IMG/VR virus record: IMGVR_UViG_3300031418_000007
Strand: one strand, 5' to 3'
Length of the DNA stretch: 64,000 nt
DNA from: a virus
Lineage: Duplodnaviria > Caudoviricetes
Positions 20,815-36,962 of this stretch are shown one piece after another (the stretch's first letter is position 1; each line of letters starts with the position of its first letter). The position numbers and the translations under genes were made by a program. The notes beneath the pieces were generated by a model. That model ran no database searches. It was not told the origin of the DNA and saw only the letters and a list, made by a program, of their open reading frames with translations.

Positions 20815-20823
20815 AGCATATTA

Positions 20824-20853
20824 CTACTCTACTCCCACCAGGGAGTAGAGTAG
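20824..20853. terminator. Bidirectional hairpin terminator
   Basis: 13-bp stem CTACTCTACTCCC / GGGAGTAGAGTAG, loop ACCA; stem identical to 39206-39235. Confidence 0.85.
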
Positions 20854-20919
20854 CTTATAGTTATGTTTAACCCACCTCGTCCCGGGTATTGTCGAGACTG
20901 TCATAAAAGGTAGGGGGTA

Positions 20920-21450
20920 TTACTTTACCGAGATCCAAACTTGATTGTTGAGATCCCACAGGTCACCGGGTGATGGCTGTGGTGTAGTGGTGCGGACAAA
21001 GCCAGCGCCACTGAGATCGGTAGTGTCATTAACGGTAAGAAACGTGCGGGTTTGAGCATTCCACCAGTAGAACGACGGCTGGTCTTGAGCAGGGTCTTGA
21101 GCACCGAGCCTACGCAGCAAGATGTTCTTGGCCTTTTCACCTAAACCGGTGTTCGACAAAATCGTGGAGATGGTCTTGTTGGCATTGCTGAAACTCATGG
21201 CGCAAATCGTCACACCCACTGTCATGATGAAGAAGTGCCATTCGCCTGGCCAGCCTTTGCCTGCCTGTACAGAAAGGCGGGTAGTGTAGGCGTCCATAAC
21301 GGCGATTAAGCACATTGTGAACACCACCACCGTACCGCACAGGTACCGTACAATCGCCCCCCACTTGCCAAAGAACTGGGATTCAAGTCCCGTGCCTTTG
21401 GCCGGCGGGAGTGTTTCTTCCCGGGGCAGTTCTTGTTCTTGTGTAGTCAT
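20920..21450 (-). CDS. Two-TM membrane protein, holin candidate
   Basis: Two hydrophobic segments (YLCGTVVVFTMCLIAVM; FFIMTVGVTICAMSF) and a soluble C-terminal tail; convergent with the spanins. Confidence 0.45.
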   Translation of the reverse strand: MTTQEQELPREETLPPAKGTGLESQFFGKWGAIVRYLCGTVVVFTMCLIAVMDAYTTRLSVQAGKGWPGEWHFFIMTVGVTICAMSFSNANKTISTILSNTGLGEKAKNILLRRLGAQDPAQDQPSFYWWNAQTRTFLTVNDTTDLSGAGFVRTTTPQPSPGDLWDLNNQVWISVK

Positions 21451-23636: not shown

Positions 23637-24026
23637 TTAAGCGGTACGCAATATAAAAGAATTGGCAAAATACATAGAATCCAGGGACATCATCACCTGA
23701 GACTGCTTACGGTCAATCGGGTTGATAAAAGCAATATCTCCGATAACCATTCCCAGACTCGTACAACGGTTGATGTAGTTCACCACGGTGACGGGTGTTA
23801 ATGGAACACCCTGTGGAAAACTCCAGTCTTTAAACGTACTCACGTCGTATTTAGTTAATGCCCAGCTTTGTGGAACAGGGTTAAGTGGAGTATAGACGTC
23901 AAACACCGCCTCATACGTCTCATTTACATCTCGGAAGATTAACCAGATCTTACTGATTGTTTCCTTGTCCGTGATGCCCTTCTCCAATATGTATTCGCGT
24001 TTGGCTAATACGAGATCGACGTTCAT
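23637..24026 (-). CDS. Hypothetical (probable baseplate) protein
   Basis: ATGA-coupled to the upstream gene; conserved-looking SLDSMYF C-terminus. Confidence 0.6.
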   Translation of the reverse strand: MNVDLVLAKREYILEKGITDKETISKIWLIFRDVNETYEAVFDVYTPLNPVPQSWALTKYDVSTFKDWSFPQGVPLTPVTVVNYINRCTSLGMVIGDIAFINPIDRKQSQVMMSLDSMYFANSFILRTA

Positions 24027-26248
24027 TTCTGGGTCCCTAGCACGTCATAATAAGTTGGCGGGATAATCAGCATGGGGTCTTCTCCTGGATCCGCCAATTC
24101 TCCATAATAGGTTGGTGGCAATTCCAGATCGAGCAGCGGTATGCTTTTTGCCTCCACAGAAATAAAGGAGGTGTTGGGAATACGCAGTGCGGTAAGAGGT
24201 CCAATATCTTTGCTGTGATCCAGTCGTGGTTTGGTCGTGTCGGTAAACCGTGCCTTGACGGTGGCTGACGCCTGATCAAGTTTGGGCTGAGTGGTATCCG
24301 ATAACCGTAGTGTGAGTTCCGGTATCGCATCCAGCGCCAGTGCATGATTGAGTTTTAGCTGAACGTTTGAGAAGTCCGCCTCCAGTTGATGTCCCAATCC
24401 CATATAAGCAGAATCACCCATGGTGTTGTCAGACAACAACTCAATCACGTCAGAACCGTCATCCATGGTTTTAATGGTGTGGACGGTATAGGAGCTCAGC
24501 TTCATCATGAGGTCAATCAAATCATTCTGAATGCTGCGCAGTGACGGATTGTTATTGAGATCCCAACCTGTAAAGGTTTTAAAGATTACCCAGGCGAGGT
24601 TAGTGAGCTCTTCACGATTGTAGTCGTCAAAGTCCAATGCGTACTTCTGCAAGAAACGCACGTAACTGTGGTCTTCTACTAATGAGATTTCACCTGTCTC
24701 GTACATCAGCTTGGTGGCGTTCTTTACCGCCGCACGTGTTACCTGATCACCGTACGAACTGTAGAGCTTGCGGTGCTTCCACATCGAAATATAGATCGAC
24801 TTGGAAACGTTTAGCAATTCCTCAGCAGAACCCACTGACACCACGTCTACAAACTGATCACGAATGCTACCCACAACAGCATCAGTTATGTATTTGCTTC
24901 CCAATCCCACTTGGCGTAATTCTTTTGCCGTAGGGGGCAAGAGACGCATGACGTTATAATAGAAGGCATTCTCAATGGTGGTGAGTTCATGACCCGCGGC
25001 TAACCGAGTGATATAACGCCACAGCGTAAAGGCATCCCGCGCATCCAGTCGTAATAAACGACCGTCTTTAGGGTTCACCACCGCCATGTTAACCTGATAG
25101 ACACCTTTACCAGCAAGATAGATCCACTGGTTAAACACCACGGTCATCATGGTGTCGCTGTGACGGTTGGTGTAATCCGCCATCTCAGATTCCAGGACTT
25201 TGGTAGGCAGCTCGGTGTGCAAACTGTAGGTCCCTTCAAAAGTCGCTTCCTCTTGATAGATCGAGGTCATCAGCGTGTTGTCTACCGCCATTGGCCTTTC
25301 TTTCTCAATGAGCTTCTCGGTTTCGAAATAGACAGGTGTGATTTGCTTGTCGTCATTCATGTTCAACTGAGTTCGCTTCCACTGAGGCGTCGGTACCAGG
25401 TCAGTTAACTGTGATTTGGTGTTCAGTACCATCTCATATTTCGAGAGCGGAATCTTGCGCGGCGTAAGCAGCTTGTCCATCAGCTGATCAAAGGTGAACT
25501 CCTTACCGGCGTTGTTATTGATCCACTCGATGTTACGATGCAACCACATGACCTGTTCACGATCCAACGAGTTCTTGTAGACCGAGAACTCACCGTAGGA
25601 ATCGATATGACTCCAGATATAGAAGTCATGGGCATGTCGGGTCTTGATAGCTTGGAAACGCGTCAGGTGTATGCACTGAACGATCCCACTATAAAGGTCG
25701 ATAACCATCTGGCGCAGCATCAGGTCTTCAGAGACATGATACTCTGTTTCAAACATTGCCGGTGCGTTACCGTTTATCCAACGCTGTACCTGCGGAATCA
25801 ACGGCCCTTCGTTCCACAAAACCAGATTCTCATTATAACGAAGAATCTTATAGTTTGGGGCAGCAATAGAAACATCATATGTAATCGGAAACAGAATTCC
25901 ATTAATCAGGAGTGTCTGTCCGTCGTAAACTTCAGTAAGACGCTTGTACAGGTCACCGCCCTTTAAATACTGGCGATAGGTGAGAAGATGCTGAGCCATC
26001 GTCTCTTTGGTGAAAGGTATCTCTTCACCTGTGTCCAAGGAAATCACCTTCATGACTTTATCAGTCTCGTGGTAATCCCCGTTTAAATTCATGTAATAGC
26101 GCCAGGTGCGCTTATTATTGAGAACGGTGTATCCGGCCTTTTCCAACACTTCATTATCACGTTTAGCAATGGCTTCTATTTTTACTACCATTGTTCGAGC
26201 GAGTTGGAAAGTGTCGGAATAGAAATTATCGAGATCTATTCTATTCAT
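24023..26248 (-). CDS. Large virion structural protein (phiKZ gp128-like, probable baseplate/tail), C-terminus with two P-P-T-Y-Y motifs
   Basis: WRYYMNLNGDYH..D..M.V.SLDTGEEI.F signature; divergent from the portal as in phiKZ-type genomes. Likely start MNRID at 26248. Ends LELPPTYYGELADPGEDPMLIIPPTYYDVLGTQK. Confidence 0.72.
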   Translation of the reverse strand: MNRIDLDNFYSDTFQLARTMVVKIEAIAKRDNEVLEKAGYTVLNNKRTWRYYMNLNGDYHETDKVMKVISLDTGEEIPFTKETMAQHLLTYRQYLKGGDLYKRLTEVYDGQTLLINGILFPITYDVSIAAPNYKILRYNENLVLWNEGPLIPQVQRWINGNAPAMFETEYHVSEDLMLRQMVIDLYSGIVQCIHLTRFQAIKTRHAHDFYIWSHIDSYGEFSVYKNSLDREQVMWLHRNIEWINNNAGKEFTFDQLMDKLLTPRKIPLSKYEMVLNTKSQLTDLVPTPQWKRTQLNMNDDKQITPVYFETEKLIEKERPMAVDNTLMTSIYQEEATFEGTYSLHTELPTKVLESEMADYTNRHSDTMMTVVFNQWIYLAGKGVYQVNMAVVNPKDGRLLRLDARDAFTLWRYITRLAAGHELTTIENAFYYNVMRLLPPTAKELRQVGLGSKYITDAVVGSIRDQFVDVVSVGSAEELLNVSKSIYISMWKHRKLYSSYGDQVTRAAVKNATKLMYETGEISLVEDHSYVRFLQKYALDFDDYNREELTNLAWVIFKTFTGWDLNNNPSLRSIQNDLIDLMMKLSSYTVHTIKTMDDGSDVIELLSDNTMGDSAYMGLGHQLEADFSNVQLKLNHALALDAIPELTLRLSDTTQPKLDQASATVKARFTDTTKPRLDHSKDIGPLTALRIPNTSFISVEAKSIPLLDLELPPTYYGELADPGEDPMLIIPPTYYDVLGTQK

Positions 26249-26272
26249 TTTGTTTCCAAAAAAGAGGCTATA

Positions 26273-29200
26273 ATGGTCCAAAGTCGAGATATGACCAGAG
26301 GAACGCAGCGCGCACAACTCTCTCGTTTAAGAGAGAGTATTAAGTCCACGAATCCCCTGGTGGCAGCAACGCTTCGTAATGCTACGCCCAAGAATGGCCG
26401 CGCACCGGAAGCAAATGAACTCACTGCGGGAAATGAGCGTAATGCGATTATGCCGCACAAGCTCGAACGCATCAGCAACATCATTGCTAACAACATTAAC
26501 GCTGCTAATGACCTGCGCGCGATTACACCCTATATCGACCGTGCTGAATTAATCTGGTCTTCGCTGCTGCTGTATCCCAACGGGAAACAGAAAAACATCC
26601 TGGAATACTCGACTCGTGCTTCTCGTTACAAAAATACGCCGTTGCATATCGCATTATTAAAGGTTTGGAAAGATTACTTTACAAACGACTATAAAATCGA
26701 AGACGAGTTGCGCACCCAGATCGATGACATGCTCTGGAACACCGGCAGCTACGCCACATTGACACTCAGTCGCATTTCGTTGGACTATTTGATCAACGGT
26801 ATGGAAGTGGTGGATCGTTCGGGTAACGAGGATCTGAAGGCGGTTCACACGTATCAGCAAACGCAGGGTAACTTTGTCTTTGACAAGAAAACCGGCAAGC
26901 TCAAGGTGATGAACGTCGGCACATATGTCCGGCCTGTTCATGATGAGTCCAAAGACGTGTTTAATGTCGCCGGACTGGAATCAATGATGGGTGGTGGGGA
27001 TTTTAAAACATCCAACCAACCTGAGTTCGATATCCTTAAAGGCTCTGAGCTTGACGGCAACGAAGGCTTCTTTATTTCCTTTACGGATAACCCCGCGGTA
27101 CTGGCGACTAATCTCCTGGCCGAGAAGCGTAAGAAGTTCAATGAGAAGTTCTACGCAGGTAACGAAGATTTCTCCTCGTTGATTCAAAAGACGTTGAGTA
27201 ATCAGGGCGCCAAAGAAGATGATCGCGATAAGTCTGTAAGAAAGCCAGATGACAAGAAAGGCCGTCGTCCTGATCAGCCAAAAGCACGCACCACGAATAT
27301 GTCGATGGGTACGCTGAACAGCTTACAGAACGATATCTTCCCTCATCGCCGTGCTCCGAATCAGTTCATGCAGTTTGTCAAGCAAGACACTGATTTAGGT
27401 GTGCAGAACTACGGTACGCCGATTGACTGGCATGTGCCATCTGCTGCTATCATTCCGATTCACATCAACGGCAATGTGCGCAAGCGTAAAGACTACATCA
27501 TTCTGTTTGATCCAGACACGGGTGAGTTCCTGAACCCGACCATGGACTTCCAGTTCTACCAGAGCTCGAAGAAACAGCAAGATGGCATCACCAACAAGAA
27601 CCAACAGGGCGGAACGAATTCACTGATCGATAACCTGAAACAGATTCAACAGGGTAAAGACTGTGACTTTGATATGACCGAGTTTGCTGAACTGAGCAAG
27701 GGCATTATCATTGAATCGTTTATGAAGTCTGTGATCTCTGGTCGTTCGGGTTCTATCTCTGTAGATCTGGATGAAGAAACCAACAAGATCTTCATGGCGC
27801 GTATGTTCCGTGGTCAGGGCATCCGTGCTCTGTATGTTCCGGGTGAGTGTGTCACGTACTCCGCGTTTAAGTTCAACGCACTGGGCGTGGGTCAGTCACT
27901 GACTCAGGCTGCTAAAATGCACATCGCACGTTTAGCGGCAATGGATCTTGCAGACGCCATGGCAAACATGGAAGCTGCGCAGTCCACAAACAAAATGCGC
28001 ATCACGTTGGACAAAGATGACCCGAACCCAGAGCGCACTATTGCAATGGCCAGGGAAGTCTTCTTCCGTGCTAACCCACGTTTCTATAACGTGTTAGCCA
28101 CTAACCAGATGAGTATTCCTGTGCTGGTTGATGCTTTCCGTGAACTCTCGTTGACGTTGGAAGTGGATGCTGGTGAAAACCCGTATTTACCTGTGCCGGC
28201 TATCTCTGTGGAACCTCAGGAAAAACAGCACTTCCGCAAAGTGGATTCTGACAGTCGCAACGAAGTGTTGAACAAGATCGCCAACTACTTCATGTTGCCG
28301 CGTAGCTGGTTGGACGTCGCAGATGAAAACAATAACTTCCAGATTGAAGCGCTGAATGAACACCGTTTGGTGTATAACCAGGCATTGAACTGGCAGGAAC
28401 AGATTGCAGACTTTGTTATCGAGCGTGAACGTAAGTACGCGCGTGTTAACCAACCTCTGCTGCTGAGCCTGATTCAAGTTATCAGTGATCAAAAGAACCT
28501 GTGGAAGCCCGACAACAAGGAGATTGAGATCGAAGGCGGTACCGATGCTGAGAAGATCGAAACCATCCTTGAAGACTTCCTCAACAACATTGAGTGCTCG
28601 TTGCCTGCGCCTGCTGTAATGGAACAGGCCAACAAACTCAAAGAGGGTCTGTCTACTGCTACTGATCTGGTAACGCAGTGGTGGGAAGCTAATGGCAAAA
28701 CCGCCTTAATCAGTAAGGCTGTGGAAACCATGAACCTGGGCGGTGAATACAGTCCAGAACAGGTTGAGGCGATGGTCAAGGCTTACCTCTACCAGAAAGC
28801 GCACAAGTTCCTTAACATTCCTTCACCGTTTGATGATGCTGTTGATGATCCATCAGGTGGCGGCATGGCAAGTATTGTGGAAAGCGTGGTCACTCAGAAC
28901 AAGGCGTTGTATAACTTCCTGGGTAACTTAGCGATTCGTGATCTTGATGAGCGTACGAAGGTGGTGAGTTCGCTGAGCGGAAAGATCGAGAATAAGCTCG
29001 AGAAGTTCCAAACGAAAACTGGTGGGGAACAAACCGAAGAATCTGAGCCAAGTGCGGATCCATTTGCACCACCGGCTGGTGATGGCGGGGAACCTCCGGT
29101 AGACAACCTGGACGACAATGGTGAGACAAAGCCGGATGACTTTAATCCGGATGATCTCAATGACGACGCGAATAACAGCGACAACGCTGATGACACGGGT

Positions 29201-29345: not shown

Positions 29346-29393
29346 AAAAAAAAAAAAGAAACAACCTTACTCCTACCCTTGCGGGTAGGAGTA
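29346..29393. terminator. Bidirectional terminator with A12 tract
   Basis: Stem TACTCCTACCC / GGGTAGGAGTA, loop TTGC; A12 at 29346-29357 gives a U-tract for the minus-strand operon. Confidence 0.85.
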
Positions 29394-34572: not shown

Positions 34573-34620
34573 CATAAATAATACTACTCCCAACCCTTCC
34601 GGGCGGGAGTAGTATTTATG
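34573..34620 (-). terminator. MCP operon terminator
   Basis: CATAAATA-ATACTACTCCC ... GGGAGTAGTAT-TTATG extended stem. Confidence 0.8.
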
Positions 34621-34644
34621 ATTACAATCGGGGTTGGCCTCCCA

Positions 34645-34710
34645 TCATCCTAGGTAAGCCGACTGATCAAGTTCACCGTAATAGGTTGACGGGAGGATGA
34701 TCAGTTTCCC
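34645..34710 (-). other. Predicted -1 programmed ribosomal frameshift site and 19-aa C-terminal extension of the MCP
   Basis: In-frame G GGA AAC (34710-34704) immediately before TGA. The -1 frame reads LIILPSTYYGELDQSAYLG* (stop 34647-34645). Confidence 0.72.
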
Positions 34711-36962
34711 GGGGCTGGGGTCACATCTTTAGTGATCACCGGAGAAGACGCGTCGTTCACGATCTTCACTTCAGATGGGCCAGTAGCAGCGCCGCCAGAA
34801 GTGGTGTTCAGAGTGGTACCCGGAGCAGAGCTAACTTTGACACCGCCCAGCTTGAAGAACACGCCAGCATCGCCCAGGAAGTCCGCAGCATCTTCGATGA
34901 CCAGTGAGCCAACGATGACGTTCAGGTTCCAGTGCAGGTAGCAAGGCATGGTCATCATGACGCCGAAGTCTTGGTTGCCACGAGTTACGTTGCCGTGCAG
35001 CACAACGTTTTCTTTAGCAACGTTAACACCGATGCCGCCCAGCGGGTTGATACGATCTTCAGTTGAGTCGTTCTGAGGAACGATCAAGATCTTACCGATC
35101 ATGCTGTCGAAGTTGGTCGCAACGATGTTGAAGTCTTCAGACGCAGTGATACGCGCGTCGCCAGAACGCATCAGGAAGCGCTCGAGGTTCTGGTGCACGA
35201 TCACAGACCATTTGGTCTTAGCGATACCAGAGTACTCGTTGATGGCAGCGATACCAGATTTGAACGCCAGGGCAGCAGTGATGTCCTGGATTTCAGTCAG
35301 CAGCAGTGAACACACGTTGTCGAACACGTCGATGTTTTCAGGAGAAGAGATGTGATCCTGAATACGGAACGAACGATGAACGGTAGACGCTTTAACGTAC
35401 ATGCGACCCGGCAGATCGTTACCGCCGTTTTCGTTATCAACAACTGGCGCACCATCGATAGAAGTGAGGTATTCCAGATGCTTGTACGCGGTTTCGAAGG
35501 CTTTCTTCGAGCAGTTAGTCTGGATGGTAACACCCATGTAGCTAACAGCGTCGTCCAGCGCTTCTTTGTTCACGTCTTCTGCGCGGATTGGGTATTTGAC
35601 AGAGATCGGATCCTGACGACGAGTGGTCAGTTCTTTGCTGGTGTCGAATACTTCCAGGCGGTAGCCGAAGTTGCCGTTAGAGGCGTTGGTCAGGTTCATG
35701 CTTGGAGTTGCAGCATTAACCACACCGCCTTTCAGGCCCTGCAACAGCGCTTTCTGCTCAGCGGTAGCCGTTGAGTGAGTGATACGCTTGTTGTTGTCGT
35801 TCAGATCGGTCAGAGACTCGATGTTAACCTGACCAGTGGTCAGCTCCAGACGGTAAGACTGGCGGTTGAAGCGCGCGGTCATGCGGACGTTGAGGTTAGG
35901 CTCATAGCCTTTGTCGTAGTACGCTTTGAACAGAGCTTTAACACCTTTACCATCTTTGTCAACCAGCGCAGAAACCGGCAGGTGACGCAGAGTGATGTCC
36001 AGATCACGGTCGTTTGAGTTCTGGCCAACAGAGGTCGGAGACATGTTGATGTTGGTCATGGACTCGGTAGGAACGAATGCCTGGATAGCAACACCGTTCA
36101 GTTTACCGCCGAAGCCCAGTTCCAGGATACGGATAGATGCAGATTCAACATCATCAGTATCAGTCCACGGACGCTGACCAGGTGCCTGGCACAGACCCAT
36201 CAGGTTGTTAACAACGCTTGGTACTGCCAGCATCTGGGTCAGGTGAGCCTGACGACCGTATGCATCACCGGTAGGGTAATCCTGATCAACTGGTGCTTTC
36301 AGGTCCGCATCGATGAACAGCTGAGCGTTTTCGTCGTTTTCGTCGGCCGGCAGAACTGGCCAAATGCGCAGCACGTCATCTTTGAAGATGTCGCCGTTAC
36401 GCAGGATACCGAAGATTGGAGTCAGTTCGGTAACGCTTTCCCAGGCAGAGGCGCCAGAAACGTATGAACCTACACCGGCAGCACGCACGGTCAGTTTCAC
36501 ACCTTCATCTTCGTAACGTACGGAGATGGTTTTGTACAGCTCTTCAGCAGCTTTGGTCTGCAGACGAGTCTGAGTGTTCAGAACGATGTTAACCGCTTTG
36601 GTTTCCATGCTCTGACCTTTGAACTGCGCCAGGGTGAATGATTCAAGACCCTGACGTTTCGCGATATCGTTCAGCGTGTCTTGCGTGAAGACCTGCGCTG
36701 CGATCTCGGTGTGGTTGTCACGACCGATAGCTGCACGGGCTGCATCGAAGCCGCCGTTGTTCAGGTTTGCTTCCATACCTTTCTGGAAGCCTACCAGACC
36801 CTGTGCTTCACCGCCAAAGATCTGGCCAAACTGCTGTTTTGCATCAGAGAAAGACTCAACGCCACTAAGCGCAGCGAAGCTTTGGTTCTTGGTCAGGGAC
36901 AGAGCCTGATTAATGAGGTTGCCGGTGTTGCGAACGCCAGCTTTGACGGGTTTAAAAGCCAT
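34701..36962 (-). CDS. Major capsid protein (phiKZ gp120-like)
   Basis: 753 aa; strongly biased high-expression codons; QTKAAEELYKTISV, PCYLHWNLNVIVG-type C-terminus; position between DnaB and nvRNAP beta genes; N-terminal propeptide with GxE sites. Confidence 0.88.
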   Translation of the reverse strand: MAFKPVKAGVRNTGNLINQALSLTKNQSFAALSGVESFSDAKQQFGQIFGGEAQGLVGFQKGMEANLNNGGFDAARAAIGRDNHTEIAAQVFTQDTLNDIAKRQGLESFTLAQFKGQSMETKAVNIVLNTQTRLQTKAAEELYKTISVRYEDEGVKLTVRAAGVGSYVSGASAWESVTELTPIFGILRNGDIFKDDVLRIWPVLPADENDENAQLFIDADLKAPVDQDYPTGDAYGRQAHLTQMLAVPSVVNNLMGLCQAPGQRPWTDTDDVESASIRILELGFGGKLNGVAIQAFVPTESMTNINMSPTSVGQNSNDRDLDITLRHLPVSALVDKDGKGVKALFKAYYDKGYEPNLNVRMTARFNRQSYRLELTTGQVNIESLTDLNDNNKRITHSTATAEQKALLQGLKGGVVNAATPSMNLTNASNGNFGYRLEVFDTSKELTTRRQDPISVKYPIRAEDVNKEALDDAVSYMGVTIQTNCSKKAFETAYKHLEYLTSIDGAPVVDNENGGNDLPGRMYVKASTVHRSFRIQDHISSPENIDVFDNVCSLLLTEIQDITAALAFKSGIAAINEYSGIAKTKWSVIVHQNLERFLMRSGDARITASEDFNIVATNFDSMIGKILIVPQNDSTEDRINPLGGIGVNVAKENVVLHGNVTRGNQDFGVMMTMPCYLHWNLNVIVGSLVIEDAADFLGDAGVFFKLGGVKVSSAPGTTLNTTSGGAATGPSEVKIVNDASSPVITKDVTPAPGN

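Follow-up and report, generated by a model that had tools for sequence, protein, structure and literature searches.

A probable programmed -1 frameshift at the 3' end of the major capsid protein gene of EL/RisingSun-type jumbo phages

In phage lambda, a slip at the heptamer G GGA AAG of genes G/GT gives two products from one mRNA at a fixed low ratio, while in phage T7 the tail of the extended capsid protein 10B has a length of approximately 50 amino acids (aa). Capsid genes extended by a frameshift close to their 3' end have been established for phages T7, T3, A2, A118 and A500 (PMC5009743). Here, a related arrangement is described for the major capsid protein (MCP) gene on a 64,000 nucleotide (nt) stretch of viral DNA (hereafter the window), which forms part of the 109-kb IMG/VR virus record IMGVR_UViG_3300031418_000007, estimated to be 47% complete. 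Comparison with related sequences indicates that the 3' end of this gene is very probably the site of a programmed -1 frameshift, conserved among relatives, by which the capsid protein acquires a short linear tag.

With T7 gene 10A/10B and T3 gene 10 the locus has in common a -1 slip, proposed in the present case, within the last capsid codons, resulting in a minor C-terminally extended subunit beside the major form. T7 and T3 belong to an unrelated phage family, whereas the window derives from a jumbo myovirus whose MCP is of the phiKZ type. In T3 the extension forms an immunoglobulin-like (Ig-like) domain, whereas a tail of 11-20 aa bearing a linear motif is predicted here, and stimulation in T7 depends on sequence more than 200 nt downstream (PMC5009743), whereas a local stem-loop is found 5-9 nt away in the present case. 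The head genes of Lactobacillus phage A2 (gp5A/5B) and Listeria phages A118 and A500 (cps) end, as here, with a heptamer and a downstream structure, and both products are likewise expected in the capsid (PMC5009743). The hosts of these three phages are Gram-positive, the A2 extension is a folded Ig-like domain and, unlike here, the added peptide is not described as being common to a baseplate protein. With 11-20 aa and a linear motif, the predicted tail does not correspond to a folded Ig-like decoration domain such as those of T3 and A2. The heptamer of the window is nearly identical to that of lambda (G GGA AAN being shared), but lambda fuses two chaperone open reading frames (ORFs) of a non-capsid gene with AAG in the A site, whereas AAC and a capsid gene are involved here. 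No description of a frameshift for an EL/RisingSun-type MCP was found in literature searches. The proposed capsid-gene 3' frameshift is of a known kind, with the new aspects being a short linear motif common to a baseplate wedge protein and its clade-wide occurrence among jumbo phages, cultured model phages included.

Slippery heptamer and coding signal of the -1 frame

The MCP gene occupies positions 34701..36962 of the window on the minus strand and encodes 753 aa in the zero frame. Homologues of the product match the Pfam family PhiKZ_MCP, identifying it as a phiKZ-type MCP, and the nearest named phages were found to be Erwinia phage RisingSun with its close relative Joad and Pseudomonas phage EL (MCP identity of 43-47%). 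Only the short MCP is annotated on the genome records of EL and RisingSun. The final ~45 residues of the MCP are variable and of low complexity, consisting largely of S, T, P, G and A, in agreement with the flexible linker noted in the original prediction, which had been made for this DNA from its letters alone. The last codons are CCG GGA AAC, followed by the stop TGA (34701..34703, minus strand), and the heptamer G GGA AAC (34704..34710, minus strand) lies in the zero frame directly before this stop, as had been stated. It overlaps a second heptamer, C CCG GGA (34707-34713, minus strand). The -1 frame also proved to be open up to the TGA at 34645-34647, as predicted, and encodes a tail of 19 codons (LIILPSTYYGELDQSAYLG) that, together with its stop, covers 34645..34704 on the minus strand and carries the core motif LPSTYYGEL at 34669-34695.

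The MCP 3' ends used for comparison were obtained from three IMG/VR contigs of ~90% identity, from nine proteins of Logan or metagenome origin (63-86% identity, measured over the C-terminal half) and from 41 more IMG/VR loci (40-91% identity), to which the genome records of EL, RisingSun and FishSpeaker, a Shewanella phage, were added. After deduplication, the set comprised 43 distinct MCP 3' ends with an MCP identity of 40-91%.

An in-frame heptamer of the form X XXY YYZ was identified in 34 of these 43 relatives, within the stretch where the -1 frame is open, with the narrower form X XXA AAY being kept in 30. The types observed were C CCA AAC (17 relatives), G GGA AAC (eight, in addition to the window), C CCA AAT (two) and A AAA AAC (two), with A AAC CCG occurring alone in four. 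In the heptamer-bearing relatives the distance from heptamer to stop was 0, 1, 2 or 3 codons and the stop itself was TGA, TAA or TAG. The codon preceding the heptamer was found to specify T, S, Q, A, P, V, D or N, with a third base that always completes the heptamer. Furthermore, proline within heptamers is always written CCA and glycine always GGA, indicating conservation of nucleotides beyond what the amino acids require. A check on relatives, proposed with the original prediction, thus showed the slippery heptamer to be kept in several types and positions but always in frame. For RisingSun, FishSpeaker and several contigs a stop of the -1 frame was found immediately 5' of the heptamer, so that in these the tail frame can be reached only by a shift at the heptamer or at the next codon.

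The -1 frame remains open for 11-20 codons beyond the zero-frame stop in all 43 relatives and encodes a tail motif of the form [LIV][LIV]-P-x-T-[YD]-Y-G-x-L. Examples of the tail are SVSPANYGRLEYPELP in EL, LIPSTNYGRLG in RisingSun and INPYYYGNLG... in FishSpeaker. The Y and L of the motif were invariant across 37 distinct motif blocks, while the DNA of the tail region outside the motif was too diverged for alignment. Entropy at codon positions 1, 2 and 3 of the -1 frame within these blocks was 1.12, 0.60 and 1.60, respectively, and the invariant leucine was found to be written by TTR as well as CTN codons. In addition, 38.5% of differing codon pairs were synonymous in the -1 frame, while the two remaining frames gave values of 10% and 8%. 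This entropy pattern and synonymous excess confirm the codon-level conservation of the -1 frame, the second check that had been proposed. Judged against the relatives, the feature at the MCP 3' end is far beyond chance. An assembly or sequencing error was ruled out, as the arrangement is present, with differing heptamers and stops, in three genomes of isolates and in over 40 assemblies that are independent of one another.

Neither the heptamer nor the -1 peptide was found in five outgroup jumbo phages (Klebsiella phages Miami and N1M2, Vibrio phages pTD1 and 2 TSL-2019, and Aeromonas phage AhC3_1), which have an MCP identity of 31-37% and a terminator close behind the MCP stop. In phiKZ itself (NC_004629; L083:8513-8600, after gp120) the zero frame stays open for 26 codons behind the MCP UGA (AGKGYRYLENGTIRYLEDGNARKLEE), as far as the terminator; this peptide is unrelated, with the tail motif being absent from it and from the tail of phiKZ gp128. 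The label 'phiKZ-like' given to this MCP in the original prediction was accordingly too broad, as the five other jumbo-phage lineages and phiKZ lack the cassette. By this comparison, the putative frameshift cassette is a trait of the EL/RisingSun/FishSpeaker-type clade.

Downstream RNA structure and terminators

Folding of the window RNA from the end of the heptamer gave a dominant stem of 10 base pairs (bp), in which a 5' arm (CCTCCCGTCA, 34687..34696, minus strand), separated from the heptamer by a 7-nt spacer, pairs with a 3' arm (TGATGGGAGG, 34638..34647, minus strand) that overlaps the -1 frame stop. An extended hairpin was obtained in this manner for every heptamer-bearing sequence, with the main helix predicted to begin 5-9 nt downstream. 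The 3' arm of the hairpin lies at or just past the -1 stop, thereby enclosing the tail ORF. Against dinucleotide shuffles, the mean folding z-score of the hairpin was -2.8.

The arms of this stem were found to be wholly different between lineages and yet complementary (CCTCCC/GGGAGG, CCTGGC/GCCAGG and CCCTTCAACC/GGTTGAAGGG). Among 15 representatives whose 5' arms share less than 70% identity, predicted pairing was better between each of these arms and its own 3' arm (-19.0 kcal/mol) than with the 3' arms of other lineages (-12.7 kcal/mol; Wilcoxon p = 6e-5; permutation p = 5e-5). The three downstream pairings that had been proposed for the window all exist on its sequence.

The MCP transcript is closed after the tail ORF by a terminator hairpin (34583..34613, minus strand), located 87 nt beyond the zero-frame stop and 31 nt beyond the -1 stop. 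The arrangement that had been described is therefore correct, while the distances first given (~80 and ~25 nt) were not exact. Terminators were located with a consensus scan, a stricter regular expression having matched that of the MCP gene only. Just two other strong phage-type terminators were found in the 20-40 kb part of the window, the first being 17 nt past the stop of its gene and the second being 65 nt past a zero-frame stop but 12 nt past the stop of a second motif-bearing -1 tail. The earlier statement that most other terminators closely follow their stop codons is thus based on a small sample.

The terminator hairpins at 34583-34613, 20823-20854 and 29368-29393 were observed to share a near-fixed stem (ACTACTCC.../...GGAGTAGT). 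The same stem element occurs in L005-L016, across genes and diverged relatives, and two Logan contigs (L005 and L006) break exactly at it.

The tail motif in other proteins

The motif of the predicted capsid tail was also found at the end of other proteins of the same phages. An ORF of 764 aa in the window (24023..26317, minus strand) ends in ...LPPTYYGELADPGEDPMLIIPPTYYDVLGTQK and contains the motif twice in tandem at 24038-24118, as LPPTYYGEL and IPPTYYDVL, both read in frame 0. This ORF was identified as a homologue of phiKZ gp128 (PDB 9xqs chain C, E = 3e-80), which has been assigned as a baseplate wedge protein in the phiKZ virion atlas (PMC13250141). No Pfam match was obtained for the gp128 homologue or for the two genes flanking the MCP gene. 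The gp128 homologues of two complete relatives (G001 and G002) carry three motif copies each, as does the end of EL ORF104 (PETNYGRL, PADYGRL and PANYGRL), while RisingSun gp89 carries a single copy, IPDTDYGSL. The number of copies thus ranges from one to three, and of the five genomes checked four have two or three. When five related genomes were scanned with a DNA pattern of the motif, four of them yielded 1-4 sites each, compared to 0-1 per strand for a reversed control pattern.

The motif variants of the two loci were found to correspond within a lineage. In the window, the MCP tail reads LPSTYYGEL and the wedge homologue LPPTYYGEL; the MCP tails of EL and RisingSun read SPANYGRL and IPSTNYGRL, respectively. 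In the window, G001 and G002, the residue before the invariant tyrosine is Y in both the MCP tail and the wedge protein; in EL and RisingSun, both proteins have N or D at this position. As the MCP tail and the wedge protein are encoded at unlinked loci and yet change together, they appear to be under one shared constraint, for which a common binding partner would be the simplest explanation. The matching lineage variants also strengthen the case for actual synthesis of the MCP tail.

A further family of ~217 aa (PHROG 18233, function not assigned) ends with the motif in relatives (IPATDYGHL and IPPTDYGVL), with loci in FishSpeaker (L067:924-1574), L068:1473-2099(-) and L074:1473-2114(-). This family shows weak similarity to a virion structural protein family and no match to a solved structure; in the partial genome to which the window belongs it gave a single, weak match.

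A gene of 176 aa with two predicted transmembrane segments (20920..21450, minus strand) was observed to end in TCG GTA AAG TAA. Its -1 frame (20867-20932, minus strand) encodes GKVIPPTFYDSLDNTRDEVG, in which the motif is again present, and ends 12 nt ahead of a strong terminator. The candidate slip site in this case is the tetramer A_AAG within G GTA AAG; alternatively, a GTG at 20959 could start an ORF of 30 aa. The sequence GTA AAG TAA followed by KVIPPTSYKL... is also present in relative G001 (locus L079), while the arrangement was not found in EL, RisingSun, FishSpeaker or G002.

It was also observed that the MCP gene of Pseudomonas phage vB_PQ1 (PQ516283.1) matches in separated pieces, annotated as multiple 'major head protein' coding sequences, and that its gp128-like gene likewise matches in several separated pieces. 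These split structural genes suggest insertions such as introns, inteins or homing endonucleases.

Alternative explanations and proposed mechanism

Several observations weigh against a programmed frameshift with a stimulatory stem as described above. The unconstrained minimum-energy fold of the window prefers the pairing ACUGAUCA/UGAUCAGU, which includes bases of the heptamer, although these bases would sit inside the ribosome during slippage. The 5' arm of the proposed stem overlaps the conserved P-x-T codons, which means that the arm and the peptide have some of their conservation in common. A canonical heptamer was not found in nine of the 43 relatives, all of which have a conserved tail. 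Among these, the L011/L014/L022/L046 group has only G GTT TTT or A GTT TTT, located seven codons upstream; the former resembles the T7 motif, of which the P-site part is non-canonical (G_GU) (PMC5009743). A ACC CCG replaces the canonical heptamer in L028/L030/L053/L057, and L015 reads GCG GGG GAG TAA TG, with an ATG overlapping the stop (TAATG) and GGGGGAG upstream. The route into the tail frame may differ between lineages, and in some it could be coupled re-initiation. Additionally, slippage in E. coli is inefficient on heptamers that place AAC in the A site, the re-pairing from AAC to AAA being badly tolerated by bacterial ribosomes (PMC4066793). The strict use of AAC or AAT, and never AAG, may reflect selection for a low shift ratio.

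Re-initiation near the MCP stop would give a separate micro-ORF, and thus a free peptide of 12-20 aa with no fusion to the MCP. The relatives without a canonical heptamer would fit such an arrangement, as would the start-like codons situated just before the motif in a minority of sequences, namely GTG in L005-L008, TTG in L014, the ATG of L015 and those of a few others. However, no ATG, GTG or TTG precedes the motif in the -1 ORF of 32 of the 43 relatives, and the -1 ORF of the RisingSun type spans 14 codons from stop to stop without a start codon. Free translation would also leave unexplained the retention of the heptamer and of the third base that precedes it amid a varying amino acid, as well as the constant spacing of 5-9 nt between heptamer and stem, and the motif is elsewhere a C-terminal appendage of proteins rather than a free peptide. 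The micro-ORF was consequently rejected as a general explanation and is considered improbable, but may apply to sequences of the L015 type. An even smaller likelihood is given to a structured 3' untranslated region acting in mRNA stability, processing or terminator context, with the -1 frame as an untranslated by-product. The significant folding of the region relative to shuffled controls and the covariation of the arms are consistent with such an RNA-only element, but it would account neither for the three-base periodicity of the -1 frame, the leucine kept through both TTR and CTN codons and the fourfold excess of synonymous differences over the other frames, nor for the fact that genuine proteins encoded by these genomes end in the motif as well, in variants that match by lineage. 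It was rejected on the basis of the codon periodicity and this recurrence.

Read-through of the TGA, as in the A1 protein of Q-beta, would extend the MCP in the zero frame by the peptide SSSRQPITVNLISRLT. This was suggested by the three close relatives, since in comparison with the two closest two of three base changes past the stop leave the zero-frame amino acid unchanged, and the in-frame open stretch behind the phiKZ MCP UGA would also accord with it. In the wider set of relatives, however, the share of synonymous differences in the zero frame falls to 10%, tandem zero-frame stops are present in L005-L008 (TGA TAG) and L027-L032 (TAA TAA), and the conserved motif is not in the zero frame of any relative, leaving read-through with a negligible probability. 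Transcriptional slippage was judged implausible, as the runs of A comprise only 3-6 bases.

Under a programmed -1 frameshift, most ribosomes would stop at the TGA at 34703-34701 and produce the MCP of 753 aa. We infer that a minority would slip, with the tRNA-Gly on GGA and the tRNA-Asn on AAC moving back by one base to GGG AAA, the proposed trigger being a pause at the extended stem-loop with its 10-bp base 7 nt downstream. The slipped ribosomes would translate 19 more codons up to the TGA at 34647-34645, giving the MCP with LIILPSTYYGELDQSAYLG attached. With tandem slippage the junction residue would remain asparagine, so that the product would consist of the whole MCP plus 19 residues, with a predicted tryptic tail peptide of DVTPAPGNLIILPSTYYGELDQSAYLG. 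For EL and RisingSun, the predicted transframe junctions are ...DPN followed by RRSVSPANYGRLEYPELP and ...DPN followed by RLIPSTNYGRLG, respectively.

The tail would hang on the variable low-complexity linker at the C-terminus of the MCP. In the phiKZ capsid, which contains 1620 MCP chains, the C-terminal MCP arms meet at the centres of hexamers and, at pentons, reach the external vertex protein gp244 (PMC11297242). By analogy to phiKZ gp120, the linker would be expected to project from the centres of the capsomers with the tag displayed at its tip, and a shift rate of a few percent would result in tens of tags per capsid. The correspondence between the motifs lends indirect support to the docking role guessed at in the original prediction and raises the possibility, put forward tentatively, that the MCP tail motif acts as a docking tag for a common partner of the capsid and the baseplate wedge. 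A modular tag can be proposed with similar caution, which would be constitutive on the wedge protein and the ~217-aa protein and added by frameshift to a fraction of the capsid and, probably, to the small membrane protein of the window phage, with one co-evolving partner recognizing it.

If the frameshift is true, jumbo phages whose MCP is of the phiKZ type would join those with frameshifting in a capsid gene, with recoding being used to add a short linear motif instead of a folded domain. EL and RisingSun are cultured and well-studied phages, and a conserved but unannotated second capsid species would alter the interpretation of capsid maps and virion proteomes for both. The C-terminus of the MCP, as the position of the tail, would moreover be a natural and tolerated display site, and the motif that it has in common with the wedge protein leads to a testable hypothesis of one binding partner. 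Should the tag prove to be modular as proposed, recoding would set the number of docking sites on the capsid surface of EL-type jumbo phages.

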